This document shows, piece after piece, positions 34,330-60,500 of a DNA stretch of 64,000 bases; the first letter of the stretch is position 1; every line of letters begins with the position of its first letter. Made by a program: the position numbers and the translations under genes. Origin of the DNA: Marsupella aquatica (Eukaryota; Plantae; Marchantiophyta); assembly GCA_973895155.1 (NCBI GenBank), contig OZ316893.1, forward strand, positions 496,860-560,859. Reading direction: 5' to 3'. The notes beneath the pieces are model-generated. The model made no database searches. It saw only the letters and a list, made by a program, of their open reading frames with translations, and was not told the DNA's origin.

Positions 34330-34336
34330 TTTTATA
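34330..34336 (-). promoter_or_regulatory. Candidate LTR TATA box, family 1
   Basis: TATAAAAGGGG on the minus strand, ~360 bp inside the LTR start and ~100 bp upstream of ATG 34228. Confidence 0.55.
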
Positions 34337-38100: not shown

Positions 38101-39523
38101 CGAATGCGTGCCACACTGAACTCCGGTTGATCTAGCATTCATGCATCCCGAAATCAAATCCTCAATCACCAAATCCCGTCACCCGTAGCAATGTCAATTC
38201 CCTGGCCCGAAACAGCCCCCGCATCCCGATCAATCGATTACTCTCAATTCCCCCAGAAGCCACTCCGGGCTGCTGCCGCTAATGCCCGGAAGAATCAGGC
38301 CACCAAGCCCCACCAATCTACCATGAGAGAGAGCTTCAAAAATAATTAGGAGGTGAGAGCTTTCGGCAAGGTGTTGGGAGAGAGTTTTGAGTTTTGCTTT
38401 CGGCAAGGAGAAGGTCGTGCAAAAGAGGGAGAAAAGAAGGGAAGAAAAAAAAAGAAAAAAAATCCCCCTCGACACCTCCTTTCGCCTTGTGCCCCGGGCC
38501 CTCCTTTAATGGCCCTCCCCGGTGCCCTCTTTCGCCTGGCTCACGGGAGCCCTAAATGCCTTGGGCACGCAGCCCTATGGGCTCGCCCCGGCCACCTGCC
38601 ATCTCACTTTTCTCGCGGGAGTCCCGGCTGCGCTCTCGCCCCGATGCCCCCCTGCGCCACTCGCGGGAGCACTTAGTGCTCGGCTACTCGCGGTTCAAAC
38701 GGGGGATTTAATTCCCCCCCCGACAGCCCTCTTTCGCCTCACGGCCACCCCCCGTAGCGCCCTCTTTCGCCTGGCTCGCGGGAGCCCTAAATGCCCTGGG
38801 CATGCAGCCCTATGGGCTCACGGGAGGGTTTTAATACCCCCCCCTTTACTCCTCGGCTGCGGCCCGGCTGCCCTTGCCCTGCTTGCGGGAGCCCTTACCT
38901 GGGGATTCCACGTGGCGGCCCTAGGGCTGCCCCTTATGGGCCCTTAAGTGCTCGCCCTCTGCCAGGCCACTTAAGGGGTATTTAACCCCCCTCCGCGACC
39001 TTCCTGCACCGGCCTCCCTACTTGGTACTCGCGGTGCCCCTTAAGGGGGAATTTTAATTTCTCCCCCACCCTCGGCGCCTTGCTTCCTTCAGCTCGCGGG
39101 GCTCCCCTCAAACGGGGGATTTAATCCCCCCTTTTCTTCTCCTGAACGCGGCCCTATGCAGGGCTCGCGACAGCCTCCTCCCTGTCCAGCCCGGCTCCGG
39201 CTGCCCATAAAAAAAAACTTCCCCCTAATCACACTGCCGGGGTCACCTCTACTCAAAAACTTCCTTGCTCCCGGTCCTGTTTTATTTCTTCTTCCCACCA
39301 ACCTTGCTATTGAGTTCTCTAAAAATGGCCCTAAAATAATGGGGAGTCCCCCAAAGGTAGGGCCCTCCTCCCAACATAATTGCAGAACAATTAGGGGATA
39401 AAAATAAATACAGTTCTTCGATCACAGGTGATGAAAAAATGGTTATTTACAATGGTTATTTACACTGCGCGACACTCCGCGACCAAGTTATTCGTGATTT
39501 TATGTGACGGGGACCCCGTCACA
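35125..39523 (-). repeat. Family-2 3' LTR (4399 bp)
   Basis: On the minus strand it starts TGTGACG directly after the purine tract AAGAGAGGAG-CTA and ends GCAAGTGACA at 35125, where LINE ORF1 resumes. Its last 231 bp match the 5' LTR remnant. Confidence 0.8.
36285..38138 (-). CDS. LTR-encoded protein, family 2 (617 aa, open), with coiled-coil C-terminal half
   Basis: Uninterrupted ATG-initiated ORF wholly inside the 3' LTR, on the same strand as gag-pol. It has heptad-like LETLEQ/LKEVIKAKE stretches and NLS-like GKRK and PVKKKR motifs. Confidence 0.75.
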   Translation of the reverse strand: MLDQPEFSVARIRRYKAAYRDYVETLIAREREEREATMSTGLAAGSTPVGRRIFRRIYPKTSAKVMEDCRNIFQATGVTEFMKVEITIPPGKSWDIEAGMELRTEGIYFECLKRVVPHVELARLLFLENQKFSFTPRHIRGELTLKMVATWVINPTSTTAISLSAVKDVEYKGFLAKVHQRVLGNVQSGVVNEEHFVVAMDIKNHPAHVYGWWYYGLKKLLAADLGSVKPGGAVHLMGSFVLARAEGLIGSPGQEDTESSLTMEIRSIATTVIGKLTEESSSAGGDEDRGEENQDEDYTLEWLESLVGDPKEPLAYNIPDVYLAELRDFREGVHEGLKLVHALRDSLKHTTARVETLEQSTLSLKEVIKAKEGTIHEKVKLLQEAHVEISNLKGALSTKAKEAEEVGALRQALAKEKQNSGEVVEWRNQVGALRSQVAAFETRAKRSEALSLGKRKSPGTPSSTLSPDLISQAIEMVVKEVSEKYGPLLDGAKKSQEKSKGLEKKLREVRKSLREAQVSTGMPPRSVTPGTPMATGQVLPLELRSGEEATLWKDTIGEGYIKAWQALANLRKQGSTSTRSTPVKKKRSEVALTPVESDEEAHSRGSSQGTVSEEEED

Positions 39524-42500
39524 TAGCTCCTCTCTTAATTGCGAAGCGCCCCCGCGAGCACCATACTCCTCCTCCGTGTAATACTTCTTTAGACGTTCTT
39601 GATTGATCCGTGTGTTGAGTAGTTGCCCCTCCAATGTCCTGAGTTGAACTGATCCGTTGGAGTAGACGGCGTCTACTACGTAGGGCCCCATCCAACGTGT
39701 ATGCAACTTCCCGGGGAAATGCATAAAACAACTGTCGTACAGGAGTACCAAATCTCCCTCCTCAATGGACACACGACGGAGACGAGAATCGTAATGTGAC
39801 TTCCGTTTGCTTTGCTCCTGCTCCGTACGGGTCAAAGCCTCTTCTCGTGTCTCAGTGAGTTGCTCCAACTGTTGGATCCGTGCTGCTACACTCCTTTCTT
39901 CCCCTTCCCTTTCCCGTGTGAGGATCCGAATGGTGGGCACTTCAAATTCCACCGGCACAAGAGAGTGTTGTCCAAACATAACGAAATAGGGGCTGTGGCC
40001 CGTGGTAGTCTTGTGAGCCAGGTTGTAGGCGTAAGTAGCAGCCAACAACTTCAAATCCCAATCGGTCTTGTGAGCTGATACCGTCTTGTTAAGAATCGTG
40101 CCCATGATCCCGTTTGCTCTCTCAGTGAGCCCGTTGGCTCGAGGATGGTACGGAGTGGTCTTCCTATGTGAGATCAGGTAGTTCTCCGTCAGACGTTCAA
40201 TTGTATGATTGAGAAAGTGAGTACCCCTGTCACTCACCAGCTCCAATGGGGGACCAAATCGTGTAAAAATCTGCTCGTACAAAAAACGTGCCGTGGTGTT
40301 GGCATCATCCTTGGCAGTGGTTCGGGCCTCCACCCACTTTGTGGCATAGTCCGTTGCAAGAATGATGTAGCGCTTCCTCCCTCTTCTAGTGATGGGAGTG
40401 AAGGGGCCAATGAAATCAACCCCCCACTTCTCAAAGGGTGCAAGAGGAAGTATGGGCACCAATGGGTGGCGTGAGGAGGGGCCAGGTTTGCCTTGGCGTT
40501 GGCAGGGGTCACATCTTTGGATGTACCGGTGCACATCCCGGAAAAGAGTTGGCCACCAATATCCAGCATCTAGTATCTTCCTTGTTGTGGTCTCCCGTGC
40601 AAAGTGGCCACCAGCTTCCTCCTCATGTAATGCTGCCATGACTGTACGTATCTCAGCTTCTTCCAAACAACGACGAAGATGGCCATCCATGCCGTACTTG
40701 TGAAGTACTCCCCTCACAAGCAAGTAGGGACCTGTCTTACGTAAAAACACTGCTGCTCTCTCCGGGCCCAAACGTGAGGGAACTCTTGCCGTACGGAGAA
40801 ATTCCAAAATTTCCCCATACCAAGTAGTGGCCTCCGTAGTCACCCTGAAGACTTCTTCATCGGGAAAACGATCATCAATCTCTTGAGAGTCAGATGCTCC
40901 CTCAATACGGGAGAAGAAGTCCGCATTGCTGTGACTCTTCCCGGATCTCACCTTCACCTCATAGTTGAACTCCTGCAATAATAGGACCCAACGTGCAATT
41001 CTCCCCGACAAGTCTGGCTTGTTGACCATGTACTTCAAACTATTGTGATCCGTGTGGAACACAACCTTGTAACCCAACAAATAATGACGATACTTCTTAC
41101 AAGCATAAATGATACCAAGTGCCTCCCTATCGGTGGGTGAGTAGTTCTTTTCTGCCGGGGCCAACTGCCTACTGGCAAAGTAGATGGGATGGTCCCTTCC
41201 ATCATCATCCAACTGACTCAACACGGCACCGATGCAAAATCCTGATACGTCTACGTAAACATGGAACTCCTTATTCCAATTAGGCATAATGAGTACGGGG
41301 GCCTCTAGCAAACGTTTCTTCAATTCATCAAAAGCAGCCTGTCGGGGTGGAGTAGGTTCAAATTCACTTCCCTTCTTCAACATGGAGGTGAGTGGCATGG
41401 CTACCTTGGCAAAGTCTTTGATGAAGCGTCGATAGTATCCAACACACCCTAAGAACCCTCTCACTTCCTTTACGTTCTTGGGAAATGAGACTGCTACCCA
41501 CACGGCCACCTTCTCGCGGTCAACTTCAATCCCCCGTGCAGACACTTTGTGGCCCAATAGGATCCCCTCCTCAATTCCAAAGAAACATTTCTCAGGATGC
41601 AGCCTCAAGCAAGTCTCCCGGCACCGCTGAAAAGTCAACCGTAAGTGTTCCGGATGCTTGACTCGTTTGCCATAGACAACAAAGTCGTCAATAAAGATCT
41701 CCAAGAACCTGCGTAAAAAGTCATGAAATATATTCATCATGAGCCGCTGGAACATGCCAGGGGCATTGCACAACCCAAAAGGCATTCTACGGAATGCAAA
41801 AATCCCCCACTCCGTAGTGAAAGCCGTCTTGAGTTGGTCCTCCTCCCGTATCCAAATTTGGTTGTAGCCAGAGTAGCCATCCAAGAAGCTGTAAATCTCC
41901 CAACCAGCTACCATATCCAACACGATATCGGTAAACGGCAGTGGGTAGTGATCCTTCTTGGTCGCCTCATTCAACTTTCGAAAATCTTGGCACACCCGTA
42001 TTTTCACCTTCCCGTCTGGCCCCTTCTTCTTGGGCACGATCACGATGGGTGACACCCACTCACTATGCATGACCGGATAAATGAAGCCTGCATCCAACAA
42101 ACGGTCAATCTCCTCCTTCACCATGAGTGAGTACTTGGGGTTGAGGCGGTATTGGCGTTGCCTTACAGGTCGTGCTCCTGACATCAGGTCAATGCCGTGC
42201 TCACCAAACTCAGGTGGCACTCCTTTCAAATCTTGGTGGCCCCACGCAAATACGTCTTGGTACTCCTTCAACAATTCTTGAATCTTGCGTTGCTCCGTAG
42301 CATCCAACTTACTACCAATGTTGAGTGTCTTGCCCTCACCCACTTCCACCTTGGTGTACTGCTCCGGCCTGATCACGTCCAGCTTGTTGCGTGTCTCCTC
42401 ATCAAAGGTCTCTTCCAACCGTGCGAGCCTCATCCCTCCATACACAGGTGCATCACTCTCCTCCTGGTCTGGCCGGGTTGGAGGTGGATCTTTTGTCACA

Positions 42501-44150
42501 TGGGCCATCATTTCTTCCACATCAGATTCTTTGTAATGTGACAGTAGCTCCTCTCTAAATTCTTCATCCAAGAGGTCATTCAACCACTCCTTCCTTCGTT
42601 CATCGTCAAACAAGATGGCTTGAGCTTCCTGGCCCTCCTCCTCCGTTTGTTCCTCCTCCTGAGTATCAACAAGCTGGGCCATTGGTGGTGTAGGTGGCTC
42701 TTCTCTGGTTTTCTTCTGCACAACACAACTTTGGTCAAGTGGTACCTCCTGAATTCTCTCCTCGGGGGTAGCAGCTTGTGGGCCAAATACATCTTCCTCC
42801 GTCAGATGAGAAATCAGCTTCACCATGTATACTTCATCCTCGTCCTCATCTGAGGTGACCTCTGAATCATATTGCTCTTCCATAGAGGTAGTCTCCCCTT
42901 GAGGTGACTCCGCTGACCAGGGAATGGTAATAGTGGGGGTGCCAAACCGAAATTGCCGTTTGCCCCAATCACTGGTGACCTTGGCCACATACAACCATGG
43001 CCTGCCAATTAAGATGGGAAAACCGTATGGCCGAACGGGTCGCATCACCAAATAGTTGAGGGGGAAAGATTTTCCCCCAATCATTGTTGGAATCTTGGTG
43101 AGACACCCCAACGGCACCACCCGTGCACCATCAGCCAACCTCATGGCACGTGCTGGTGGCTCTAACTCCGTATACCCCAACCGGTTTGCCGTCTCCTCAG
43201 TCATGATGTTGACTCCCGAGCCCTCGTCCACTGGTACAAACCGTATTGCACATCCGTTGATGTCTACCGTGAGTTCTGGGGCACCCAAATCCTCCGTGAC
43301 CCAGTTGACTTGTATGGGGTCAACCCCGACTTTGGGTAACCTTCGTCTACGTCTCCTCCTCATAAGAATCTCCTTGACTTGGCGGCGGTAGAGGGAGCTA
43401 TCACGTAGCAGTTGCCCAATCGTGGCACTGACTGGACAATCTAGAATATCTTGAGCAATGTTGTACGCAGTTGCAGGAGGTATGGGTGGGATGACCTCCT
43501 CTCCTGGTTTCCAACGAACAACTTTCTCCTCCGCTTTCTTTCTGGCCTTTGCCTCCTCTAGGTCTTTGTCAATGGCCGCTTGCATGGCTTGTGCTTCTAG
43601 TTCCTCCAGCTGCTTGCGTACCTCTTCTCCCACCTTTGGGTAGAACAACTTGGGGTTATCCCGGTCAAAGTCGCTATCTTCCATGGGTGGCACCTCCGGT
43701 TCGTGTGAGGTGCCCGATGTGGAAGCTTGATGCACCTCCTTGTACTTCTGCTTGAGTTCAGACTTGTCCTTCTTTTTCCCAGACCGAGTGGAGACCCGGT
43801 AACAAGAGTAGTGTCTCCTCTCATCATCACTGTCGACCTCCGGCAAATTTTCAGCGTGAGTCCACTCATGACTTGGGGACCGTGTGTGCTCAACAACTTC
43901 CGAAGTGACAACGACCACCAAAGGCGCCTCCACAACTGGAGATACTACAACGACTGATGGTACTAACTGTTCCTCGATGGTGACCAGCCTCTGCTTGGGA
44001 ACGTCCACTACGGGCTCTTCCCGTTTGGTGACCAACTCCTTTGCAGGGATGAACTCAAGCGGGTCAACCGCTTCCGTGGCAAGAAAGTTGACGTTAGCCT
44101 CTTTGAGCGGGGGTGGTGGTCCCTTCTTCTCCGGTCCTCCAGCTTGTTGA
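39500..44150 (-). CDS. pol: Gypsy pol polyprotein (protease, RT, RNase H, integrase), open for 1511+ aa
   Basis: PR VPVDEGSGVNIM; RT KDHYPLPF, FLDGYSGYNQI, MPFGLCNAP, IFIDDF; RH FHVYVDVS...EALGIIY...HTDHNSL; INT HEEEAGGH..CDPC, WGVDFIGP, SDRGTHF, NGLTER, WMGPY. Confidence 0.95.
39524..39536 (-). other. Polypurine tract of the family-2 element
   Basis: AAGAGAGGAGCTA immediately before the LTR start TGTGAC, overlapping the end of pol. Confidence 0.65.
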
Positions 44151-45889
44151 GCCTAGCTTGATTGCTTCCAAGGTTGGACAGTGTGGTGCAAGATGACCCT
44201 CCCCCTTGCACAATTGACACAACCGGGCAAAATCTCCGTTCCCTTGACGTGTGGGCTCCGGGCACACGTTAGCGTAGTGGCCAGCCACTCTACAATTGTA
44301 ACAAATAGGGATCTTCCTCACTCCAGGATACGGTGGCCTATTTCCGGGAGTAGCGTTGGAATAGTTAGCATATGGGGGTGCTTGAGCGTTAGTTGAGATC
44401 CCATGAATGCTCCTTGGTCCCGGGTTGAGCGGCTGCACACTATACACATTGGACTCTGGTGGCTCCTCCATGAAGTACTCAACTGGCCCCTCCGCTGCAT
44501 AGGAAGAGGTTGAGTAGCTGGCTCCTTCAACGTCCTCCTCCCGTACTTGGAAAACCTTGGCTGGTTCTCCCGCTGGGCACTCTTTCGGGGCATGACCAAA
44601 CTTCATGCACTTGGTGCACCACACGTTGGCTCTCTCTACTGGAACCTTTCTCCTCTCTGGCTTGAGACCTGCAAAGTGCACCTTCAACGCTTTCATTTGC
44701 TCTGTCAACTCATCATACCTGGCCTCTTGCTCCTTGAGATGTCTTGCCGTAGACAATGGGGTAATGGCCACCGTGGGTATCACCACTTCTCGATGAGACG
44801 ACTTCTTGGTCTTCTTGGACAACTTCTTCTTCCTCTTCTTTCGCTTCTCAGCTTCTGACTCCGTAGTGTCCGACTCCGTAGCGCTCTCAGAATCCTCAGA
44901 TTCATCACTACTATCCAACTCAGATCCACTGGATTCATCACTAGACGAACTGTCAACCGGCTTCAGCTTCTTTCTTCGGCAACGCTTGCTTGTGGCATCA
45001 GCTGCAGTGTATGACTCCGCTGCTGCAATAGCTTCAGCCAATGTGGTTGGCTTGGCTTGACGTACAAAGAACCCCATCTTGCTTGGTAGGGCAGCTACAA
45101 ACCACGCTTGACGCATAGCATCATCGGTACGGGCTTGTATCCGTCGTACTAACTTCTGGAACCTTTGCAAAAACCTCCGTAATGACTCCTTCTTCTTCAT
45201 CCTAAGTTGGCCCACCTTCAATAGCGACGTGGCCTCCACTCCGATGGATCTGAACTCCTTCAAGAAGGCTTGCTTGAACAAAGCCGGCAATCGGCTTTTA
45301 TGTTGGGCAACAACGAAATAAACCATGGGCCTGCCTCCCCTCTCATCATTCCAAGAATGATAGTGAGCTTATGTGCAGACTCCCCATTAGCTTCGGCAAT
45401 CCCTTCAAACTCCTCAATCCATTCGTCTGGATCATCTTTTGGTCTCCCCTTGAAGGGTACGTACTGAACACGGGTACGTTGTGCAGCTGGTGCCTGTATC
45501 AACACAGGTGGTAATGACGTACGTTGGGCCACCGGTAACAGCACCGATGATAGGTGTGAGACGATTTGTGGCAATGCAGTGAGCTCTGGAATGAGATTTT
45601 GTTGTAACTCAGACTGCACCAACACAAAGGGCTCTCCTTCTTCTAGCTCGTGATCTATGTCTGGCTCTTCGTCTAGGCGTATGGCCTCATTACGTTGAGC
45701 CTCTCCTGGTTGCACACCAACTTGTTCTTCCAGCACCAGTGGCAACCTCCTCTCTTCTGCAAGCCGTAAGCGTTCTTCGGCAGCAACACGTCGTCTGGTC
45801 CCAATCCAAGAGGGCCCCCGTTCTAGCTCGGGTAGTGGGGTACGTGTGTGTTGGGGACTTCCTCTACCTCCCCTTCTCCCTCTCGGCAT
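44094..45889 (-). pseudogene. gag: Gypsy gag, family 2, with a frameshift near 45270-45320 and a frame change before pol
   Basis: FKGRPKDDPDEWIEEF...GEAGPWF...FKQAFLKEF (retrotransposon gag) and three CCHC-type knuckles (CTKCMKFGHAPKEC, CYNCRVAGHYANVC, CQLCKGEGHLAPHC). Confidence 0.88.
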
Positions 45890-46105
45890 CCCATTGAGAC
45901 CTGCATTCCAAACTCACACCATTGTCTTAGAAAGCAATCTTTGTGAATATCAACCGTCGCACGATGCGTTGTGGTTGACGTACAATAACAAAGTAACCAA
46001 CAAACTTCTCACGTATCAACCGTCACAAGTTGCATTGTGGTTGATAGGCTTGAATTCCAAATAGACGTAGCTCTACCTCTTCGTGTAGTCAAACAAGAAG
46101 AAGGG

Positions 46106-46123
46106 TCCCCGGCAGCGGCGCCA
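46106..46123 (-). other. Primer-binding site, Athila-type (tRNA-Asp-like)
   Basis: TGGCGCCGCTGCCGGGGA on the minus strand, nearly identical to the Athila PBS TGGCGCCGTTGCCGGGGA. Confidence 0.8.
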
Positions 46124-46142
46124 AAAACAAGGACCACACTTA

Positions 46143-46373
46143 TGTCACTTGCCTATCCAACGATTAATGCGTGCCAACCGTACTTTTCCTTGCTTAAACC
46201 GTTGGTATCGTATTACGGGGTCGTGGAGGGACGCTATTTGGAGGATTTTCACACCTAAGGATGAGTATGTTTGATTCCGCTCCCGGAAGTGTACTTTTTG
46301 ATCAAGTCTACCGACTGGTCTCTCCATTTTTGATCAAGTCCAAGGGACTGGTTCTACCATCTACAACTCATGC
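46143..46373 (-). repeat. Family-2 5' LTR remnant (U5 end)
   Basis: Matches 35125-35355; cut at 46373 by the family-3 LTR start. Confidence 0.93.
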
Positions 46374-46467
46374 TGTGATGCCTAGACAGGAATCACTCGG
46401 CCAGTTAATTGGGTAAAGCAGGAAGGCACCCTAGGAACACCTTAGTATAGGGACAAAACAAGGAAAA

Positions 46468-46473
46468 TATAAA
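46468..46473 (+). promoter_or_regulatory. Candidate LTR TATA box, family 3
   Basis: AAAATATAAAC is conserved in copies A, B and C, ~95 bp inside the LTR start and ~280 bp upstream of the ORF ATG. Confidence 0.45.
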
Positions 46474-46749
46474 CCATTAGGGGCAACCATGGAACCCGGG
46501 CCAAGGCCGGAGGTAAGGACGCTGAGGGTGAAAACTTGATTAGGGTTAGGGCACGTTAAGCATCGGCGGCTAGGAAGGATCAACGGGAAGAAGGACCGGC
46601 AGAGGAGAGGGGTAAGGAGCGCTTGCAGGAGATGGTGGCTCATTTGCAAGCACGAACTAGGCAGACGACTACGGAAGGCCAACTACTGTCAGCTGCTTAG
46701 GCAAGCACTCGGGGAGAGAGTAGATACCGACGATCGACCTAAGGAGGGT

Positions 46750-49700
46750 ATGAGCAACGTCAATCAAGCGGCACATTTCTGGGGATGCCTGTTCAAACGG
46801 GCAACTGAGTACATCAAGACTTACGAGGACGAGGAATCAGAAAGGGCAGCTCGAGAACGGCAGGAGCTCGCTTGATTGTGGGAGCTGCAGAAGACGGCTT
46901 TCTTAGGAGGCGAACTCATCAAGGACGAGTTCCTGTGGACGCCTACTTCCAATCAACTCGACGATCTTCTGTTTTGCAAAGACAGCGTCGTCGGCATCCG
47001 AGAGGCCATCAAGAACTGCAACGACATACACTGGGAATTAAAGGGTAGCACGGAAAGGTGGACCCAGGCAACGGTGCTAGGAGAAACCTCCACGGCAGCA
47101 GAGATGAAGAGGAAGGGAGCCGTCAACGATGAAGCCACCCCGGCAAAAAGAACGAGGTCGGCGGCACCAAAGAAGCCAGCCGAGCAGAAGAGCAGGAGGC
47201 AGGGAGAAGCCGAAGAGGAGGAGGTCGATCCCATCAAGGCCATTCCAACCAGGGATGACACCTGGAAGGGCTGGGCGGCAACCCTACCGGTGGAGGTGCA
47301 ACTACATTTTGCACGGGAGGAGGATGCATGGTTCACGGCCATGCAGACCAAGAAGTACCAAGGCTTCATGGCCGGATCCGGCTTAGAGGCCTTTGTAAGA
47401 TTACCATGGCTGAAGCCGGAGGTACCGGAGTCAGACCTATTAGAATTCGTGGGGTCATGGGAACCCGAGACCAATTGCACGAGGATATATGGGAAGGATT
47501 TCTATCTTACTCCCAAGGTAATTGCCGAAGTGTTTGGTTTGCCGATAGGCAATAAGACCAAAGTTGATACCAGGAAGACCTTGCCTGACAAGGAGTTCCG
47601 GTCGTTCCCTGGGCCATCAACGAAGAATGGCTTCTTCCGGAACACCTGCACCAACCCGCACATAGGAGAGATGATCGACTTCTTGCGGGTGACCATGCAT
47701 TGTAACTTGCCGAGGGCAGAGATCGGCAAGGCACAGGTCTATCTGGCAGAAAGGCCAGACCCAAGCCGGGACTACAACGGGTACCTCCTCAACCAATTGA
47801 AGAAGATCTTAAAGGAGGAGCAACAGGTAATCGGCATGGGGAGCGTGTCACGGCTTGGCTATCACATGCCGCTATTGTGCCGGTATGCCAGAGGTCAGAC
47901 TTTTGCCCCAGTACTTCCCCTGCAGGTAAGGGCACCCGAGGAAGCTCCAACGCCGAGGCCGTTGGCTGAGAAGCCTCAACCACCTGTTAGCCCTACGATC
48001 GAGCAGGTGTTTAGGCCCAGGAAGGAGGACTTGCCGATGCAGCAACCAGGCATGCAGAGTCTGCTGAAACTACTGGAGAAAGAAAAGAAATCGGCATCGG
48101 CAACGGCAACGGCAACAATGCAGGACACTACTACAGAGGTAGGCCTACACCGGCTCACAAGAGAAAACCCCTTTGCTGGAGACAAGGAGAGAATCAGGCC
48201 GGAATCCAAGCCAGGTGTTCGAATGTACGTGGGAATCTCAAGCTCCGAATCTGAGGCAGATTGCCCGAAGCTCCTACCGACGAAGAGGAGAGGGAGAAGC
48301 CGGACGTCCAAGAAGTAGAGGAGGCAGTGGAGGACTGCAGCCATGATAATTCCGACTATGGGTCGGACCATCACGTTCCAGGAGTAAGGACCTGTGGCCG
48401 GTTTGTCCCCACACTTCCAAGGGTAGTGCGAGGGGACCCCAACCAGCAGAGTAGCCCTGAGTCTCCCCCACCAGATGTTGCTCCCCCGAGCTTCGACGGC
48501 ATAAAACAGATGGTGCAGGAATTTCAGGAGCGAATCAGGCAGGAAGAGGAGGCAGCCCTGGCTAGGGAAAAGGATTTACCAGGAGGAGATTGGCCGGAGG
48601 ACATCAGGCGGCTAGCCGAAAAAGGAAGCAAACCTCTAGCCACGATTGAAGAGATCCGCAGGACAGCTTGGGAGCAGAGGCCGCGATGGGCGATGCCGAT
48701 CACTTCTACTTACTCCACCTACGCTAAGAATAGAGCCATGGAGTATGGTGAGATGTGTGGGGAACTTGCGCTCGGCATCTTTGGAGAGGACTTGGAGGTA
48801 GGACCCTTTTTCCATAGGGAGCAGTTGGAGAAGCACCAATTAGAAGAAGCGGTGGCTTTAGAGAGAAGCAAGAAGGACGAGGTCATTCGGCGGCTTAGGA
48901 GGATGGAAGCCAAGATTGAAGATCTAAGGGCGGCCAAGAAAGCCCAAGATGAACTGCGGATTAAACGACATGAGCTGAACATCATGCAGGGGCAGTTGGA
49001 CACCGCGCAGGCTGATAATCAGAATATCAAGGATAAACTGACTCAGACGCAGGGAGAGTTGGCCGACACGATCAAAGAGAGGGAGAAGTGGAAGCAAGAG
49101 CTGAAAAATACAGAGGAGGCCCACATAACAGCCAACAGCCGGGCCATGGCGGAGACCCAAAGAAAGGAATGGGCGTTGAAGGGGGAGCTCAAGAAAATCC
49201 GCGGAGCCCTTGAGCAGAAGGAGGCCGAGTTAGGGAAATCCTATCAAGGGATTATGGCGCTGCAGCATGAGCTTGCGTCCCTGACGGCCAGCTTCAAGGC
49301 CGACCTAAGGGAGAAGGACGAGATGCTCGAATAGACTTACGCCAAGATGAACCAGATGGAGTCTGTCATCATTGCAGAGCTCGACAAGGAGCTAAGAGCA
49401 ACCCGGGAGGAGAGGACTACCTTGAAACAAGAACGGGAGGAAGCCCAGAAGGAACTAGAGGAGGCATGCAAGGACCTGGATGAGACCCAGGAGGAGTTGG
49501 AGGAAATCACGAGGAAGATGGAGAACCTCCAGCGGCGGGCCGACAACCAAACGGAGCGGCTGAAGAAACAAGCCGTAGTATTTAAGTGCTTGTCTTCATC
49601 AGGCCCAACTCCAATTGGGGCAACCAAGTTACCAGGAGTGGTACTGGCCGAAGAAAAAGCCGCGCCAACTGCACCAGTGCCGGAAGTAAGTGGGAAGGGG

Positions 49701-50117
49701 AAGGGACCAGCTGCCGAACCAGAAAAGAAGAAAAAGCGGAAACCTTCTGGGTCAAAGAGTAATCCGACTCCACAAGCCGTGGTGACCAAAGAGGTAGAAC
49801 CAGCACCATCCTCCGGCATGAATACGGCAATAGATCCCGCTATCATCACAGGTGGGGGTGGTGCGGCCCAAGCCGAACTACTCAGTAAGGAGGCCGGTAT
49901 TCCAGATCCGCCTCTTGAGCAGGCCGGGGAGACCGTAGCCGAGGCTGAGGCCATACCCGATTCCCGAGCCGATGCCGACGCCGATGGTGGACCCAGTCAG
50001 GCCGATGGAGAGTTGACTCAGTCAAGGGCAGGTAATCTGTCAGGGAATGAGCCTACGGCAGTGGCTGAGGAGGAAGCGTTGGGGGTGTCCATTAAGGATC
50101 CACCACCGGTGTCGTGA
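46750..50117 (+). pseudogene. LTR-encoded protein, family 3 copy A (~1100 aa when repaired): PMD-like core plus long coiled coil
   Basis: Starts MSNVNQAAHFWGCLF. Stops at ~46873 and ~49332 and a frame-shifting deletion near 48260 relative to copies B/C. ORF pieces 46876-48318, 48261-49334 and 49347-50117. Confidence 0.85.
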
Positions 50118-51033
50118 CGGTGCAAGGGCGCCGTTCCTTTTAGGGAGGGCGGACGTGGAGGGAGGAGGCGTGAGTGAGCAGGGCAGGCGCGGATCTCCAA
50201 GTTTAGGATTAGGATCAGGACCAGGAGCGGCCCTGACACTTAGCTTAGTGGGATTGCGGTCCCACTGGTAGGAGCAACACTTGTGCTCCTGCCTTGCTGT
50301 ACATAGGTAGATTCGGGCAAGTAGATTACTGTTAAGTAGATTAGGCTTACGATGCAAAGAATGGCGGATCCACTACCAGGATAAGTACCTGGGCAGCGGG
50401 GAGCTCAGGGCCTCTTCTTTAGCAAGTTTTTAGTTTGCACCAGCCGGGCTGGGATCAAGTAGTACGAGAAGCTCTCGGTTAGTCATACATTGACCCTTGT
50501 GTATATTCATGTTTCCTCATGCCTAAGAGCTGAATAGAGTTGGCCTCACGGCTTAGTTCGCAGAGCTTGTGTATGAGATGTACTGTTTGTATGGCAAGTG
50601 CATGGTATGACTCAGTCAGAATGAGTCATTTTGCTATTTGTGTGTCGCATTAACTTGTGTGAAGAGTGCCCACATCAACCAAAAGGAAGGAAAGTAAGCA
50701 GGGGAGTGAGAGTTGGATGTGTCCAGCTGAGAGAGGTCTTAGCGGCTTAACCAAGCCTATTGGGGATCATTCCGGCGGCGGAATCCAAACATACCTAACA
50801 AGACGGAGGGGAAGACAGGGGAAGGCCTAGATTAGGCTGGCTACGTATCTCATGACCCGATGAAGGATCTGTCCAGTATATGTGTGTAAAATGTTAATAG
50901 TAGTAGTAGAAGGTTAGCAGCGTCCCATGCCGCTAAGCCGCGGAAACGGCCTCGCCAAGCGCGAAACCTGCGGGAATCGGCTTGAGCTGGGGGGTTTCTT
51001 GGGTTTAGGGAGCCATGGGACGCACCACATTTT

Positions 51034-51050
51034 TGGCGCTAGATGGAGGG
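51034..51050 (+). other. Primer-binding site, family 3 copy A
   Basis: TGGCGCTAGATGGAGGG, 4 nt after the LTR-terminal CA; tRNA not assigned. Confidence 0.75.
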
Positions 51051-51098
51051 GGCATTTCTTAAGCCATGAGATATGAAGTTAGAACGGAAGCGTAGGTA

Positions 51099-54000
51099 AT
51101 GATTGACCTTACGCCGAGGGAAGAAAGAGTGATTCAACGGGAGAGAGCTCGACTGCAGCAGCTCGCCGGGTGGCATGATACACAGCAACTGAGAGGGGCA
51201 GAAAGAGCTGGTAGCTCCAAAACTGGAAGTAGCGTCGAAGAAGACATACCAGAAGAAGAGTCGGTAAGGAGAAGTGAGTCTCCAACCGACATGGGGGAAC
51301 CAGAGGCACGGCCAGACGAGAGGCCAGGGACCAGATTGAGCCAGCGGTCGCGCATACATTACAAGGCATTTTATGGGAGAGGAGATGAGGATCCGGACGA
51401 ATGGTTGGATGATTTCGAGGGAACCGCTGCAGCAAATGGAGAATCGGCCATCAAGATGCAGATTCTTCCCGGCCTGTTCAAGGGTGAGGCTAGGCCTTGG
51501 TACAGAGCATTGGATGTGGAAGATCAAGCCATCTGGGATATCTTCAAAACACTCTTTGTTAAGGAGTTTCGACCCATTGGAACTTCAGAACTAGCAGTGC
51601 TGAAGTTGGGACAACTTCGGTTCAAGGAGAACAAATCCTTCAGGAAGTTCTTGCAACGCTTTCAGAAACTGGTAAGACGTACAAAGACCAATGCATCTGA
51701 AGGTATGCAACTTCAATGGTTGGTGAATGCTTTGCCACAGAAGATGAGTTTTGCAATTAGGAAGGAGAACCCTGAGACTTTAGCCGAAGCAATTAAGGAT
51801 ATTCAATTATACATTAATGCAGATATCACAAGCCGGAAGAAACAGCTTAAGTCTGAGAGTTCCTCATCAGAGGAGGGATCACCCCATAAGAAAAAAGATA
51901 AGAAGAAGAAACATTCTAAGAAGTATAGAAGTGATAAGTCAAGCTCGGATAGTGGGAGTAGCAAGAGTGAGTCATCTTCTAGTTCTGAAGAAGAAAAAAC
52001 TAGGAAAAGGAAGGGCAGAAGGAGAGGGAAGACGAAAGTCAAGCTGGAGGCTAAGCCACCAGATAACATCGTAGCCCTTACCGAGCAACTTAAGGCTATC
52101 ATTGCAGAGGTAAAACCGAAGAAGAAGGTAGTACAGGAGGATAGCTCTGTATGGTGTGCCTTATGTTATAAAACCGGACACCATAAAGATGCGTGTCCTA
52201 AGCTTAATACTAATCATGTTCGGCATGTGGCCGAGATCAGACCATGTCAGGGAGAAGTAGAGTACTTTTTAGGAGATGCCGCTGATAGTGTTTTCGGCAT
52301 CAGTGAGACTGGAGCACGAGACCTATCCAACAGACCTGCATCTCTATGGTCAGGGTTAAGGAACAATCCAGGAGAGATGTATCCTCGGATTATTCAGAAC
52401 CCGTCAGTACCTCCTAGGCCGAATGTGCAAAGATTTGCGGCGTGCTATAATTGTGGTCAACCTGGCCATTTTGCTAGAGAATGCCCGAATGCACGCAAAC
52501 AGGGTGATGGACAACCAGCTCAGCTATGTATGGGATGCCGACAAGAAGGTCATATGCTAGGGCAATGTTCTACTTGGTTGGCAGGCCTGGCCGCAAATCA
52601 TAAACTTTTGCCGGTCAAGATCTTACCGCCAGGTACTACCCCCGGAGGAGTTCAAATCAACCACATCGAACTAGGATGGCAAGTGGATGCCGAGGCAGAG
52701 TTCGTACCATCTGATGATGAGGCCGAAGCCCTATCAACCTTCTCAGAGGAGGATTTAGATCATGATTGCTACCGGGTCTCTACTCAATCTACCAGAAGGA
52801 AGGAAAGGTGGGATGGGCTGGCCAAAAATAAAGGGAAGGTTACGGAGGAAAAGATCGACTCTTCGTCAATATCAACAGAAGGAGAAGGGAGGGCTCCGGC
52901 AATACAGGTAAGCCATGAGCCCACCAGTGAACCCAATCCTTCACAAGATAGCGACTTCAATCGAGATCATCCTAAGTTGTTCTACCCCTCTGTTACGGCT
53001 AGTGTTAAGGAACAACTAAGAGAATTAGAAACCCTGGAGAATACCGAAGCCATTGCCAAGGATGTAAAACGAGCAAAAGCATTGTTCGCTTCGGAAGACC
53101 CAACAGCTGTGGAGACTAGCGTGGCAAAACTGGCCGAATCCAAGACGGAAACACCACCAGAGGAGAAGCCGATTGTTCCCTATGACCTGGCTAAAGATGT
53201 ACTAGAATCTAGAGTCTCGGCAACAGTAGGTCAACTATTGAAAAATAGCCCGTACTTCCGGAAGCAATTAAGGAAGGCTATTCTCGGCAAGCCGAGATTA
53301 CCCAAGGTAGCAACCAGATCCGACGTACTAATGATAGAAGAAGATCAAGGAGCCCCAACATTACCATTAATGATTCAAGGAGAATTATTACTATGGGTAC
53401 CCATCGATGGAGGATCAGGGGTATGTATTATGATTGATTCAACAGCAAAAGGGTGGGGTCTAACACCGGAGATGACTGGAAGAGTGTTGAACATGGCCAA
53501 TGGATATCAGGTCATTCCCACGGGAGTGTTAACCGGCATCAAGACAGAGATAGGAGGTATCTTCTTTAGCATTAACTATGTAGTAATGAAGCCGGTAAAT
53601 CCTACGTCATTCCGGCTATTGATTGGTAGGCCATGGCTGTACCTAGCCGAGGTAATAGAAGATTGGGGTAAAAAGTAGTTCACTTTCGGGACCCCCTCTA
53701 TCACGATATCCTGGGACACTAAGGATGACCGTAGGAAAAGCATAAGGGAAGTAGATGGGTACGACAGTGGACTGGAGTCAGCCGATGAAGTACGTTGGTT
53801 AGAATGCCTCACTGACCTAACCGAAGAAAGTGTCTTTGGACCAGAGGTACCCCCCAGCGGATTATGGCAAGAACCAATGGAAGGTGACTTGGAAGAAGAA
53901 GACGAAGAGGTCGAGGACTGCTTTACAATAGAATCCACCTTTTTAGCTGCAATTCCGGAGGAAGTAAAGGATGTAGACCAATTGGATGAAACGGCTAAGT

Positions 54001-55368
54001 GGGGAGCAGTAGCAGGGACAGTGGATTTTCTGCAGGCGTTGTGGCAGAGCCGGCAGGGTTCACAACGCCATCGATCATCGGCAAGGAATTAAATACCAAG
54101 GGATCGGCATACAAGCCGATTACGAGGGCAGAACAAATTGAGGCCCTATTAGAAGCCGAGAGAGCACAGCGGCCTGACTCTCAGGAGCAAGAGGTGGATG
54201 AGATGGACAGACACAATCCAGAGCCAAGGCAGGAAGGGGAGCCGACCACCAATTCAAAACCGAATAGACCGGCAAGGGGACAATCTATGGACACCAAGGA
54301 AGGGACCGACTCGGCTAGTCCAGCCGAGATTCCAGTTTATGGAGGTATGAGATTTTAGAGACTGGAAGCCGAACTGGACCCGAATTTGAAGAAGCAGATT
54401 AATATGATCCAAGCACGGCAATATCGGAAGCTCGACTTAGGAGAGGGAAGAGAACTGAACTTAGGGAGAAACCTAGCACCTGAGCTCGAGAAAGAGATCA
54501 GTGACTTATTGATTGAATTTCAGGATGTGTTTGCATGGAGTCACCAAGATCTAAAGGGAGTAGATCCAACACTAGGGGAACATCGAATTGATCTCATGTT
54601 AGGAGCCAAATCATTTCGACAACCAATTCGAAGGATGAACCCGAAGTATTCCCTGCTGGTCAAAACAGAAATCGACAAACTAGTGGAAGCTGGATTCATC
54701 ACTCCAGTCCTGCATTCAGACTGGGTGTCTCCAATTGTGATAGTTCCCAAGAAAGCTGGACCCGATGGTAAACCCAAGATCCGGGTTTGTCAGGATTACA
54801 GGAAGCTGAATGAAGCAACATTAAAAGACCATTTTCCTTTACCGTTTACTGATATGGTACTAGACATGGTAGCCAGTCATGAACTATATTCATTCATGGA
54901 TGGATACTCTGGTTATAACCAAATCAGGATTCGGCAGGAAGACCAAATCAAGACGGCCTTCATCACGGAATGGGGGATCTATGTCTTCAATCGTATGCCG
55001 TTTGGACTCTGCAACGCACCAGCTATGTTTCAACGATTAATGGTGAACATTTTTCATGATTACTTGAGAAAGTTCATGGAAATCTTCATTGATGACTTTG
55101 CAGTATTCGGGAAGGCATCGAAACATGCTAAATACCTCAGGAAAACCTTCATGAGATGTAGAGAGGTGGGTCTCAAGTTACACCCAGATAAATGTTTCTT
55201 TGCAGTAACCGAGGGGGTGCTACTAGGTCACAAGGTATCAAGGAAGGGCATTGAGATTGACAAAGGTAAGCTAGCAGTATGGCTAGATATCATGCAACCT
55301 AAGAACATAAAGGATGTAAGATCCTTCTTGGGATGCATTGGTTACTATCGCCGGTTCATCAAGGATTT
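51099..55368 (+). pseudogene. gag-pol: Family-3 gag-protease-RT, disrupted and truncated
   Basis: gag FYGRGDEDPDEWLDDF and CCHC knuckles (CYNCGQPGHFAREC); protease VPIDGGSGVCIM in the same ORF; stops at ~53676 and ~54356 plus a frame change; RT (KDHFPLPF, FMDGYSGYNQI, IFIDDF) in 54386-55375. Confidence 0.92.
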
Positions 55369-57502
55369 TCAATAGTTGACCTACTGTTGCCGAGACTCTA
55401 GATTCTAGTACATCTTTAGCCAGGTCATAGGGAACTATCAGTTTCTCCAGTGGTGTCTCTATCTTGGATTCGGCCTGTTTTTTCACGCTAGTCCCTACAG
55501 CCGTTGGATCTTCCAAAGCAAACAATGCTTTTGCTTGTTTCATATCCTTGGCTATGGCTTCAGTATTCTCCAGGGTTTCTAATTCTTGCAGTTGTTCCTT
55601 AACACTAGCCGTGATAGATGGGTAGAACAACTTAGGGTGGTCTCGATTGAAGTCGCTGTCCTGTGAAGGATTGGGCTCACTGGTGGGCTCATGGCTTACC
55701 TGTGTTGACGGTGCCCTTCCTTCTCCTTCCGTTGATGTTGACGAAGAGTCGATCTTTTCTTCCTGAACCTTCCCTTTATTTTTGGCCGGCCCATCCCACC
55801 TTTCCTTCCTTCTGGTTGATCGAGTAGAGACCCGGTAGCAATCACAATCCATATCCTCTTCTGAAAATGTTGATAGGGCCTCGGTCTCATCATCAGATGG
55901 TCCAAATTCTGCCTCGGCATCCACTTGCCATCCGAGTTCGATGTGGTTGATTTGAACTCCTCCTGGGGTAGTACCTGGCGGCAAGACCTTGACCGGCAAG
56001 AGCTTATGATTTGCGGCCAATCCCGCCAACCAAGTAGGACATTGTCCTAGCATGTGACCCTCCTGTCTACATCCCATACATAGCTGAGCTGGTTGTCCAT
56101 CACCTTGTTTGCGTGCATTCGGGCATTCTCTAGCAAAATGGCCAGGTTGACCACAATTATAGCATGCCGCAAATCTTTGCACATTCGGCCTAGGAGGTAC
56201 CGACGGATTCTGAATAATCCGAGGATACATCTCTCCTGGATTGTTCCTTAATCCTGACCAGAGAGATGCAGGTCGGTTGGATAGGTCTCGTGCTCCAGTC
56301 TCACTGATGCCGAAAACACTATCAGCGGCATCTCCTAGAAAGTACTCTACTTCTCCCTGACATGGTCTGATCTCGGCCACATGCCGAACATGATTAGTAT
56401 TAAGCTTAGGACACGCATCTTTATGGTGTCCGGTTTTATAACATAAGGCACACCATACAGAGCTATCCTCCTGCACTACCTTCTTCTTTGGTTTTACCTC
56501 TGCTATTATAGCTTTAAGATGCTCGGTAAGGGCTACGATGTTATCTGGTGGTTTAGCCTCCAGCTTGACTTTTGTCTTTCCTCTTCTTTTGCCCTTCCTT
56601 CTCCTAGTTTTTTCTTCTTCAGAACTAGAGGATGACTCACTCTTGCTACTTCCACTATCTGAGCTTGAGTTATCACTTCTTGACTTCTTAGAGTGTTTCT
56701 TTTTCTTATCCTTTTTCTTATGGGGTGATCCCTCCTCCGATGAGGAACTCTCAGACTTAAGTTGTTTCTTCCGGCTTGTGAACTCTGCATTAATGTATAA
56801 TTGAATATCTTTAATTGCCTCGGCTAAAGTCTTTGGGTTCTCCTTCCTAATTGCAAAACTCATCTTCTGTGGCAAAGCATTCACCAACCATTGAAGTTGC
56901 ATACCTTTAGATGCATTGGTCTTTGTACGTCTTACCAGTTTCTGAAAGCGTTGCAAGAACTTCCTGAAGGATTTGTTCTCCTTGAACCGAAGTCGTCCCC
57001 ATTTCAGCACTGCTAGTTCTGAAGTTCCAATGGGTCGAAACTCCTTAACAAAGAGTGTTTTGAAGATATCCCAGATGGCTTGATCTTCCACATCCAATGC
57101 TCTGTACCAAGGCCTAGCCTCACCCTTGAACAGGCCGGGAAGAATCTGCATCTTGATGGCCGATTCTCCATTTGCTGCAGCGGTTCCCTCGAAATCATCC
57201 AACCATTCGTCTGGATCCTCATCTCCTCTTCCATGAAATGCTTTGTAATGAATGCGCGACCGTTGGCTCAGTCTGGTCCCTGGCCTCCCGTCTGGCCGCC
57301 CCTCTAGTTCCCCCATGTCGGTTGGGTAAACGTTTCTTCCTACCGACTCTTCTTCTGGTATGTCTTCTTCGATGCCACTTCCAGCTTCGGAGCTACCAGC
57401 TCTTTCTGCTCCTCTCAGTCGCTGTGTATCATGCCACGAGTTGCTGCAGACGAGCTCTCTCCCGTTGAATCGCTCTTTCCTCCCTTGGCGTAGGTTCAGT
57501 CA
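55366..57502 (-). pseudogene. gag: Family-3 gag, copy B (5' frameshift, 3' truncated)
   Basis: Protein closely matches the copy A gag up to ATVGQLLK, then reads into antisense RT of copy A. Confidence 0.88.
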
Positions 57503-57550: not shown

Positions 57551-57567
57551 CCCTCCATCTAGCGCCA
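57551..57567 (-). other. Primer-binding site, family 3 copy B
   Basis: TGGCGCTAGATGGAGGG on the minus strand, 4 nt from the LTR end. Confidence 0.75.
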
Positions 57568-57571: not shown

Positions 57572-60500
57572 TGTGGTGCGTCCCATGGCTCCCTAAACCC
57601 CAGAAACCCCCCTTCACAAGCCGATTCCCGCGGGTTCCGCGCTTGGCGAGGCCGTTTCCGTGGCTTAGTGGCATGGGACGCTGCTAACCTCCTTCTACTA
57701 CTACTATTAACATTTTACACACATATACTGGACAGATCCTTCATCGGGTCATGAGATACGTAGCCGGCCTAATCTAGGCCTTCCCTTGTCTTCCCCTCCG
57801 TCTTGTTAGGTATATTTGGATTCCGCCGCCGGAATGATCCCCAATAGGCTTGGTTAAGCCGCTAAGACCTCTCTCAGCTCGACACATCCAACTCTCACTC
57901 CCTTGCTTACTTTCCTTCCTCTATTAGTTGATGTGGGCACTCTTCACACAAGTTAATGCGACACACAAATAGCAAAATGACTCCTTCTGACTGAGTCATA
58001 CCATGCACTTGCCATACAAACAGTACATCTCATACACAAGCTCTGCAAACTAAGCCGTGAGGCCAACTCTATTCAGCTCTTAGGCATGAGGAAACATGAA
58101 TATACACAAGGGTCACTGTATGACTAACCAAGAGCTTCTCTTACTACTTGATCCCAGCCCGGCTGGTGCAACTAAAAACTTGCTAAAGAAGAGGCCCTGA
58201 GCTCCCCGCTGCCCAGGTACTTATCCTGGTAGTGGATTTGCCTAACTCCTTGCAGCGTAAGCTTAATCTACCTAACTGAATCTACCTATGTACAGCGAGG
58301 CAGGAGTACAAGTGTTGCTCTTACTAGTGGAACCGTAATCCCACTAAGCTAAGTGTCAGGGCCGCCTCCTGGTCCTGATCCTAATCCTAAACTTAGAGAT
58401 CTGAGCCCGCCCTGCCCACTCACGCCTCCTCCCTCCACGTCCGCCCTCCTTGAAAGGAGCGGCCTCCACCACCGTCATGGCAGCGGTGTCTATTCCTCAG
58501 TGGACGCCCCCAACGCTTCCACCTCAGCCAGTGCCATAGGTTCGTTCTCTGATAGATTACCTGCCCTTGACTGAGTCAACTCTCCATCGGCCTGACTGGG
58601 TCCACCCCCGGCAACGGCATCGGCTTCAACATCAGCCTCAGCTACGGCCTCAGCCACGGCTACGGCCTCCCCTGCACACTCAAGTGGCGGATTGGGTACC
58701 TCGGCTTTGTCATCCCCTTCTTCTAGGGTAGTTGGATCCTCCGCCGTAACCCTGCCTGAGGTCGGTGTTGGGTTTACCTCCTTGGTCACCACGGCTTGTG
58801 GAGCCGTATTACTCCTTGACCCTGAAGGTGTCCGCTTCTTCTTCTTTTCTGGTTCGGCAGCTGGCCCCTTCCCCTTCCCACTTACTTCCAGCACTAGTGC
58901 AAATGGCGCGGCTTGTCCTTTGGCCAGTACCACTCCTGGTAACTTAGTGGCCTCAATTTGAGTTGGCCCTGATGAAGCCAAGCACTTAAATACTGCGGCT
59001 TGTTTCTTCAGCCGCTCCGTTTGGTTGTCGGCTCGTCGTTGTAAGTTCTCTAGCTTCCGCGTGCTTTCCTCCAACTCTTCCTGCACGTCGTCCAGGTCCT
59101 TGCGCGTCTCCTCCAGCTCCTTTTGGGCTTCCTCCAATTCCTGTTTAAACGCAGCTCTCTCCTCCCGGGTCGCTCTTAACTCCTTGTCGAGCTCTGCAAT
59201 GATGACAGACTCCATCTGGTTCATCTTGGCGTAAGTCTGATCGAGCATATTGTCCTTCTCATGCAGGTCGGCCTTGAAGCTGGCCGTCAAGGACGCAAGC
59301 TCCTGCTGCAGCGCAATAATCCCTTGATAGGATTTCCCCAACTCGGCCTCCTTCTTCTCAAGGGTTCCGCGGATAACCTCGAGCTCCCCCTTCAATGCCC
59401 TTTCCCTTCTCTGGGTCTCCGCCCTGGCCCGGTTGTTGGCTGTTATGTGGGCCTCCTCTGCATCCCTCAGCTCTCGCTTCCACTTCTCCCGCTCCTTGAT
59501 CGAAACGGCCAACTCTCCTTGGGTTCGAGTCAGTTTATTCTCCATAATCCGATTATCAGACTGTGCGGTATCCAATTGGCCCTGCATGATATTTAGCTCA
59601 TGTCGCTTAATCTGCAGCTCATCTGGGCTTTCTTGGCCGCCCTCAGGTCTTTGATTTCGGCTTCCCTTGCCCTGAGCCGACAGATGACCTCGTCCTTCTT
59701 GGTTCTTTCCAAAGCCACCGCTTCTTCTAATTGGCGCTTCTCCAACATCTCCCTCTGAAAAAAGGGTCCTTGCTCCAACTCTTCCCCAAAGATGCTGAGC
59801 GCCAGCTCTCCACACATTTCCCCATACTCCATGGCTCTATTTTTAGCATAGGTGGAGGAAGTAAAAGTCATCAGCATCATCCACCGCGGCCTGTGCTCCC
59901 AAGCCGCCTTGCGGATCTCTTCTATTGTGGCTGGAGGGATGCTTCGTTTTTTTGCAAGCCGCCTGATGTCCTCTGGCCATTCTTCTCCTGGTAAATCCTT
60001 TTCCCTAGCCAGGGCTGCCTCCTCTTCCTCCCTGATTTGCTCCTGAAATTCCTGCGCCGTTTGTTTTATGCCGTCAAAGCTCGGGGGAGCGACATCTGGT
60101 GGGGGAGACTCGGGGCTGCTCTGCTGGCTCGGGTCTCCTCGAACTACTCTTGGGAGCGTGGGGATGAACCGGCCACAGGTCCTTACTCCTGGAACATGAT
60201 GATCTGACCCGTAGACGGAGTCATCATTATTGTAGTCCTCTACCGCCTCCTCCTCGGCTTGGACTACCGGCTTCTCCAGCTGTTCTCCTGGTTTTGTTGT
60301 GAACACGGCTTCACCTCTCATCGGTCTTGGTTCCTCCTCCGGCTTCCGTGTTGATCTCTTGTTCTCCTTGTCGTGGCCGGGAGCTACGGCCTGCTTCTCC
60401 TCGGCTTCGGGACTTGAGGCTCCGACATACATCCGGACTCCCGGCTCGTGTTCCGGCCTCCTTCTCTCCTTGACCCCAGTAAAGGGGTTTTCCCTTGTAA

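Follow-up and report, generated by a model that had tools for sequence, protein, structure and literature searches.

The 64,000-nucleotide stretch of the liverwort Marsupella aquatica analysed here (assembly GCA_973895155.1, contig OZ316893.1, positions 496,860 to 560,859; hereafter the window, in whose coordinates all positions are given) contains two related families of Ty3/Gypsy retrotransposons, families 1 and 3, whose long terminal repeats (LTRs) each carry a long open reading frame (ORF). The encoded proteins combine a core domain, predicted to adopt a VANC21-like fold, with a C-terminal coiled-coil-like segment. On balance, they probably act as nuclear, DNA- or chromatin-binding, oligomeric accessory factors, which would be likely to protect or activate the LTRs of their own elements.

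Long open frames inside the LTRs of two Ty3/Gypsy families

A preliminary description of this DNA, made from its letters alone, had proposed related LTR proteins for these two families, quoting peptides at 47350-47560 (plus strand) and about 32980-33260 (minus strand). Both peptides are present, the former in an ORF of 404 amino acids and the latter in an ORF of 728 amino acids at 31598-33784. Both ORFs do lie inside LTRs, as seen from a target-site duplication and an empty site for family 1, and from a common start, a primer-binding-site (PBS)-like sequence and an adjoining gag gene for family 3.

For the family-1 unit, the LTR spans 3,997 bp at 30698-34694 on the minus strand (TGTGACGCC...GACGTGACA) and is flanked by a perfect 5-bp target duplication, TTTGG, at 34695-34699 and 30693-30697. 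Removal of the LTR together with one TTTGG restores the uninterrupted frame, with DUF4283 and a CCHC motif, of the surrounding ORF1, which belongs to an element resembling a long interspersed nuclear element (LINE). Empty-site public contigs (3 in run X1, 2 in run X2) join position 30692 to 34695, skipping 4,002 bases and sharing 5 letters, and the summed depth of the contigs rises and falls precisely at the LTR termini. The target duplication, the restored host frame and the empty-site contigs indicate that the family-1 unit is a solo LTR. That the unit might serve the inner Gypsy element (35125-46373) as its 3' LTR was ruled out, since the unit starts at 34694, has its own target duplication and lies inside the LINE ORF1. 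In three records, other family-1 copies carry a PBS-like sequence after the LTR end, which resembles that of family 3.

The family-1 ORF (31598-33784, minus strand) comprises 728 codons from the first ATG, and 860 codons from stop to stop when counted from 34180. It encodes a core domain of 206 amino acids at 32723-33340 (minus strand) and a coiled-coil-like segment at residues 597-703 (31676-31996, minus strand), indicated by a heptad scan and weak Pfam coiled-coil matches. About 150 bp upstream of the open frame, the box TATAAAAG at 34329-34336 (minus strand), read from the sequence, is a candidate TATA box, and the ORF is followed by a non-coding LTR tail at 30698-31597. Because the ORF lies inside the LTR, even a solo LTR retains an open frame of 728 codons.

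Family 3 is represented in the window by three copies: X at 46374-51029 on the plus strand, and Y at 62275-57572 and A at 26077-22946 on the minus strand. All three share a sharp common start, TGTGATGCCTAG, with unrelated flanks, and a conserved AAATATAAAC is found about 90 bp into the family-3 LTR. The LTR of copy X is 4,656 bp long, starts with TGTGATGCC and ends in ..GCACCACA. In both X and Y, this end is followed by TTTT, the PBS-like TGGCGCTAGATGGA (51034-51047 on the plus strand in X, 4 nt past the LTR end, and conserved at 57554-57567 in Y) and gag, and in X also by reverse transcriptase (RT). The gag ORF of X lies at 51096-53678 (plus strand; Retrotrans_gag, zf-CCHC) and that of Y at 55283-57499 (minus strand), whereas the RT fragment of X at 54359-55375 (plus strand; RVT_1) is truncated at the start of element Y. 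The two elements meet tail to tail at 55283-55375, X being cut in RT and Y in gag. The end of copy A at 22946 was rejected as an LTR end, since this copy (core at 24554-25186) is truncated there in mid-ORF. Thus no intact element flanked by two copies of the unit is present in the window, X and Y being truncated against each other near 55366-55375 and A being cut. The limits of copy X are also visible in the public contigs: the summed depth falls about 5-fold at 51037/51038, loose contig ends are located exactly at 46374, and in two contigs of one run a purine-rich tract lies directly 5' of the family-3 LTR start. The units of families 1 and 3, with lengths of 4.0 and 4.7 kb, respectively, are genuine LTRs of Ty3/Gypsy elements.

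For copy X, the LTR ORF extends over 46750-50117 (plus strand) and is interrupted by a TGA at 46873-46875, a frame change between 48255 and 48318, and a TAG at 49332-49334, leaving an open piece of 404 amino acids at 47104-48318 (plus strand). Almost all other copies in public contigs have a C at position 49332 and hence a CAG codon (depth 475,408 of 479,474 in run X1), indicating that the TAG stop is private to X. The core domain of 215 amino acids lies at 47254-47898 (plus strand; 60751-61395 on the minus strand in copy Y), and the stretch quoted in the preliminary description corresponds to residues ~83-152 of the 404-amino-acid piece. A coiled-coil-like region follows within the approximate limits 48920-49601 (plus strand), again from the heptad scan and weak Pfam coiled-coil matches, e.g. 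to ATG16, and the LTR is completed by a non-coding tail at 50118-51029 (plus strand).

The family-3 ORF ends about 910 bp short of the LTR end and the PBS-like site, and is located outside the internal region between PBS and polypurine tract (PPT). It has the same orientation as gag, and is a sense ORF additional to gag-pol. Because the ORFs of both families lie between the LTR start and the PBS, they would be duplicated with the LTR at either end of the element and can persist in a solo LTR. Apart from the three copies, a piece of about 70 bp of the family-3 LTR start (TGTGATGCCTAGCCAGG...) occurs alone at 27681-27749 (plus strand), followed by a T-rich stretch.

A shared core under purifying selection with a predicted VANC21-like fold

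The family-1 and family-3 ORFs align in BLASTP with 84 bits at an expect value (E) of 1e-21, with 53 of 185 positions identical (29%), 47% positives and 7 gaps. This similarity is far beyond chance, and the alignment that had previously been drawn by eye is therefore significant. The shared core exceeds the stretch first quoted, extending over 47254-47898 in family 3 and 32723-33340 in family 1, and G-L-x-x-F-V-x-L-P-W, E-F, T, L, F-x-L, F, N-G, C and F-x-R are conserved in the family.

In comparisons among copies X, Y and A, the ratio of nonsynonymous to synonymous substitutions (dN/dS) of the core was 0.08-0.10, at dS values of 0.20-0.42. The ratios of the other regions of the ORF were 0.17-0.22 for the N-terminal part, 0.36-0.40 for the linker and 0.29-0.45 for the coiled-coil part. 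The gag ratio, available for X versus Y only, was 0.19, above that of the core. The third-position guanine-cytosine (GC) pattern of the ORF resembles that of pol. The core is under strong purifying selection, and the ORF is a real, selected gene.

An exhaustive phmmer search of 1.84 billion representatives returned 21 proteins at E<=1e-3, of which 4 reached E<=1e-10; one of the 21, a bacterial repeat protein, was treated as a false positive. The named relatives are all entered as 'unnamed protein product' of the leafy liverwort Calypogeia fissa, and the rest derive from assemblies and metagenomes. In a tree of 15 core sequences, which left out 5 of the 20 alignment rows because they had <120 core residues, family 1 groups with the Calypogeia proteins (support 93/91), and family 3 with relatives from the assemblies and metagenomes (support 90/94 with the relative P0001). 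The family-1 protein matches the Calypogeia protein P0030 at E 5e-25; the likeness of their N-terminal parts is not significant (E 0.5). Several relatives also end in coiled-coil-like sequence. Word-indexed protein searches yielded no match for the family-1 core and, for the family alignment, only P0012, one of the alignment's own rows. The family is present in high copy number, with thousands of public contig pieces at 90-100% likeness. When the window copies at 46250-51350 and 30300-35100 are compared with these related pieces, transitions dominate (A>G, G>A, C>T, T>C), as is expected for methylated repeats.

The AlphaFold2 models of both cores, built with the 20-row alignment, had a predicted local distance difference test (pLDDT) score of 88.1 and a predicted template-modelling (pTM) score of 0.85 for family 3 (copy X), and 91.6 and 0.88, respectively, for family 1. 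The order of helices and strands is identical in the two models. In Foldseek searches of the PDB, VANC21 was the best match for both, at E 0.98, probability 0.35 and a query TM-score (TMq) of 0.51 for family 3, and at E 0.043, probability 0.98 and TMq 0.58 for family 1. The match spans 91-95% of each model, and all other PDB chains had TMq values of <=0.19 in both searches. Among the viral structures of BFVD nothing was found at E<=0.001, the best match having an E of 0.071 and a TMq of 0.34. The core is thus predicted, from these models, to adopt the VANC21 fold.

The preliminary description had called the core similar to the plant mobile domain (PMD), on account of an apparent resemblance, seen by eye, to a PMD pattern of the W.PET..TF...TL.DV..LLGLP type. 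This proposal is partly supported: the models point to a kinship with PMD at the level of the fold, via VANC21, whereas membership of Pfam PMD or Transposase_32 was not borne out. PMD, Transposase_32, ATHILA and DUF1985 gave no Pfam match in the window ORFs at E<=1, nor in the 21 relatives at E<=0.01. Among the neighbours in the ESM Atlas, the family-3 core lies near a Transposase_32 cluster (0.87) and an ATHILA ORF-1 cluster (0.86), and the family-1 core near a cluster with PMD in 20% of its members (0.88) and a DUF1985 cluster (0.88); for family 1, all 10 of the 10 best named matches share a family or clan. Since all these scores are below 0.9, they serve as leads only. Two matches from the PDB sequence search, SRN2 (E 0.058) and a mycolic acid synthase (E 1.2), were regarded as chance.

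As had been described, the proteins of families 1 and 3 have C-terminal coiled-coil-like segments, basic patches and no transmembrane segment, as judged by heptad and Kyte-Doolittle scans. The basic clusters are KKRK, KRAR, KRK..KRMR and KKKKRK, which resemble nuclear localisation signals (NLSs) by eye. The 19-residue Kyte-Doolittle maximum was 1.13-1.28 in all frames, and since no window exceeded 1.28, this crude scan indicates no transmembrane segment.

For family 2, the faint echo of the core that had been described did not hold. The peptide ATGVTEFM is present in the family-2 ORF of 617 amino acids (36285-38138, minus strand), situated in the inner Gypsy element downstream of pol and ahead of the 3' repeat, but family 2 was rejected as a relative, with an hhalign probability of 0.6% over 22 columns against the family profile and a BLASTP E of 3.3 against family 1. 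A word-indexed protein search found no homologues of its N-terminal part, and the ORF had no Pfam match above the cut-off.

Function of the LTR-encoded protein

A gene inside an LTR occupies an unusual position. In mouse mammary tumour virus (MMTV), the superantigen gene lies in U3, a retroviral frame within the LTR that is thus duplicated at both ends of the provirus; LTR genes of this type belong to animal retroviruses, encode unrelated proteins and have much shorter ORFs than those described here. For plants, a literature search found no example of an ORF inside an LTR, nor did the available sections of the review PMC7264820, which place the extra ORFs of plant Ty3/Gypsy elements in the internal region. 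The closest counterparts in architecture are the 'PMD-CC' extra ORFs (eORFs), which combine PMD with a coiled coil and are sense-oriented 5'-terminal frames of one seed-plant Tat lineage (Ustyantsev et al., 2015, PMC4408406). Those ORFs are found in seed plants, whereas the ORFs described here lie upstream of the PBS, inside the LTR, in a bryophyte host. According to the same paper, moss Tat-like elements lack such ORFs and the first eORF appears in gymnosperms (PMC4408406).

PMD itself (PF10536; MAIN, MAIL1 and the Gypsy-encoded PMD-A clades) resembles the present family in its tie to plant Ty3/Gypsy elements, an association noted in PMC5418596; PMC5418596 and PMC7156037 describe PMD as an angiosperm-wide domain, whereas the named relatives here come from a liverwort only. 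A literature search, judged by title and abstract, found no work on PMD in bryophytes or liverworts. VANC21 (PDB 9LNJ/9LNK) is encoded by VANDAL21, a Mutator-like DNA transposon of Arabidopsis and Brassicaceae, in contrast to the bryophyte Ty3/Gypsy LTRs of the window, and its likeness to both cores lies in their predicted fold. According to passages in PMC5735166, VANC21 binds arrays of YAGTATTAY in non-coding DNA of VANDAL21 and causes loss of methylation, and VANC proteins carry DUF1985 and DUF287, neither of which was detected in the present family. A 2026 atlas of Arabidopsis products of transposable elements (TEs) reports that VANC is structurally homologous to the PMD protein MAIN, and that VANC and the 'Athila domain' were modelled as coiled-coil oligomers (PMC13547354). 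From these comparisons, the most fitting reading of the LTR-encoded protein is that of a highly divergent bryophyte representative of the VANC/PMD/DUF1985-like fold group with the layout of the PMD-CC eORFs. If the models are right, it would join the coiled-coil-bearing accessory ORFs of PMD/VANC fold already known from plant Gypsy elements, and would be set apart by its position in the LTR, its bryophyte host and its extreme divergence.

The ORF is the 5'-most frame of the element, placed between the candidate LTR-internal TATA box and the PBS-like site. In the explanation that we favour, the basic patches may direct nuclear import of the protein, and the C-terminal coiled coil may mediate its oligomerisation. 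By analogy with VANC21, the oligomer would bind short motifs in the non-coding tail of the LTR, for which TAGATTAGG is a candidate, and binding would influence silencing or transcription of its own element. An anti-silencing or trans-activating function, which the preliminary description had proposed in preference to an envelope protein, would by this analogy be compatible with the VANC21 match.

An exact match to the candidate motif TAGATTAGG occurs 6 times in the window (0.43 expected). Five of these copies are located in LTR tails and have sense orientation, at 50337-50345 and 50828-50836 in copy X, 57768-57776 in copy Y, and 31575-31583 and 31487-31495 in family 1; a further copy lies at 15124-15132. 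The only 8- and 9-mers that are repeated in the tails of both families derive from TAGATTAGG, which was seen in 0 of 500 simulations. The tails of the two families do not align as DNA, apart from one 29-nt blastn match of 90%, centred on a hairpin-like TTCCGGCGGCGGAA block (50770-50783, 57821-57834 and 30868-30881) that is followed by ..CAAA..CATACCTA. We regard TAGATTAGG as a candidate cis element, a lead and not evidence of binding.

Several points weigh against the explanation that we favour. Upstream of its first ATG, the family-1 frame stays open for another 132 codons, which makes that ATG a tentative start, and all three family-3 copies in the window have broken frames. VANC21 has no detectable sequence similarity to the core: neither the family profile nor either core by itself retrieved VANC21 from the PDB sequences, and the structural match is confined to VANC21 residues ~289-531. 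In the 20 aligned members, neither PMD (PF10536), Transposase_32, ATHILA and DUF1985 nor DUF287 was reported at E<=10, a scan limited by the HMMER filters, which drop most matches above ~0.1. The link to PMD is second-hand, via VANC21 and its reported likeness to MAIN. The calls on coiled coils and transmembrane segments were made with crude scripts, the NLS-like reading was made by eye only, and the TAGATTAGG motif was first spotted by eye.

The likeness of the fold could be distant or convergent only, and the protein could be a nucleic-acid-binding or particle-associated oligomeric factor with a role like that of LINE ORF1p or the 'Athila domain', which would serve RNA packaging, assembly of ribonucleoproteins (RNPs) or virus-like particles (VLPs), or nuclear import, and not chromatin control. 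We consider this possible but doubtful, as the sole PDB fold common to both models is that of a DNA-binding protein solved with its target DNA, basic NLS-like patches flank the core, and the frame of the solo LTR is open though there is no gag-pol to serve in cis. A PMD/MAIN-like repressor, damping the transcription of its own family or mimicking a host silencing factor and so limiting copy number, would accord with the role in TE silencing that passages of PMC5418596 and PMC7156037 give to the genic PMD proteins MAIN and MAIL1. Moreover, VANC and MAIN are reported to share a fold (PMC13547354), so that the fold alone does not tell the direction of the effect. Repression is nevertheless decidedly unlikely, given that the family is very abundant, that the maintenance of the ORF through many copying rounds is easier to explain if it benefits the element, and that the sole solved relative is an anti-silencer.

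An envelope (env)-like or cell-to-cell movement protein would fit the presence of a coiled coil, as found in env proteins, and the location of family 2, which lies at the env position, downstream of pol and ahead of the 3' LTR. The ORFs of families 1 and 3, however, lie upstream of gag, inside the LTR, their predicted fold matches a DNA-binding protein, and their hydrophobicity stays below the level of a transmembrane segment (Kyte-Doolittle maximum 1.28); we reject this very improbable reading because of the wrong position and the missing transmembrane segment. LTR retrotransposons can capture host sequence, as passages of PMC7264820 describe, and the ORF might in principle be a transduced fragment of a host gene, or a frame that is open by chance and serves no purpose for the element. 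Such an origin is hardly credible in view of the core dN/dS of 0.08-0.10, the same position and layout in two families at 29% identity, the relatives in another liverwort and the pol-like third-position GC pattern, and it is rejected because of the selection signal and the conservation across families. We retain the nuclear accessory factor that acts on its own LTRs as the probable function. A more far-reaching version, which appears unlikely, is that each LTR forms a self-contained gene, with TATA box, ORF and 3' signals, for a VANC-like, sequence-specific anti-silencer whose targets are TAGATTAGG-type motifs of that LTR. The thousands of copies, including the solo LTRs, would then form a distributed anti-silencing network, and the fold would be a retrotransposon invention of early land plants, ancestral to MAIN, MAIL1 and VANC.

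MAIN, MAIL1 and VANC are central to the conflict between plant TEs and their hosts. According to PMC4408406, Tat elements acquired the PMD-coiled-coil ORFs within the seed plants and not earlier. If the present reading is true, a liverwort Gypsy protein of VANC/PMD fold, so diverged that HMMs miss it, would move the association of this fold with retrotransposons back to early land plants, and the family would provide a new outgroup. Solo LTRs, which are usually seen as dead remnants, can moreover keep a promoter-proximal open frame for a candidate regulator.

Other elements in the window

The window is plant DNA dense with nested transposons, with CACTA-type ORFs, a LINE-like element and several Ty3/Gypsy elements. 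The inner Ty3/Gypsy element (35125-46373, minus strand), which carries the family-2 ORF, has 231-bp terminal repeats that are 99% identical, a PBS (TGGCGCCGCTGCCGGGG) at 46107-46123 and a purine tract at 35379-35393. Its 5' repeat lacks the 23 bp that precede its 3' repeat, and adjoins the start of the family-3 LTR of copy X exactly. The window contains no recognised tRNA gene by which a PBS could be identified. Element X and the inner element share 67% identity in their RT, yet the inner element carries the unrelated family-2 ORF, indicating that close Gypsy relatives differ in their accessory gene and in its position.

The LINE-like element (28059-35099, minus strand) contains the ORF1 with DUF4283 (E 1.2e-8) and a CCHC knuckle that is split by the family-1 solo LTR, and its downstream part at 28059-29318 (minus strand) has an endonuclease-like start and zf-RVT. 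The CACTA/En-Spm-type transposon ORFs at 811-8430 (plus strand) match Transposase_21 (E 2e-70), DUF4218, DUF4216 and Transposase_24. An open frame at 10726-11424 (minus strand) encodes a small methyltransferase domain (MTS, E 4e-8) and may represent a host-gene exon. At 16078-16765, 20610-21261 and 21466-22294 lie G-rich tandem repeats of 121-122 bp, in 5.7 and about 2-3 copies with 84-94% matches, and a 359-bp repeat in 2.3 copies. The blocks at ~16-18 kb and 20-22.7 kb are mutual duplicates.

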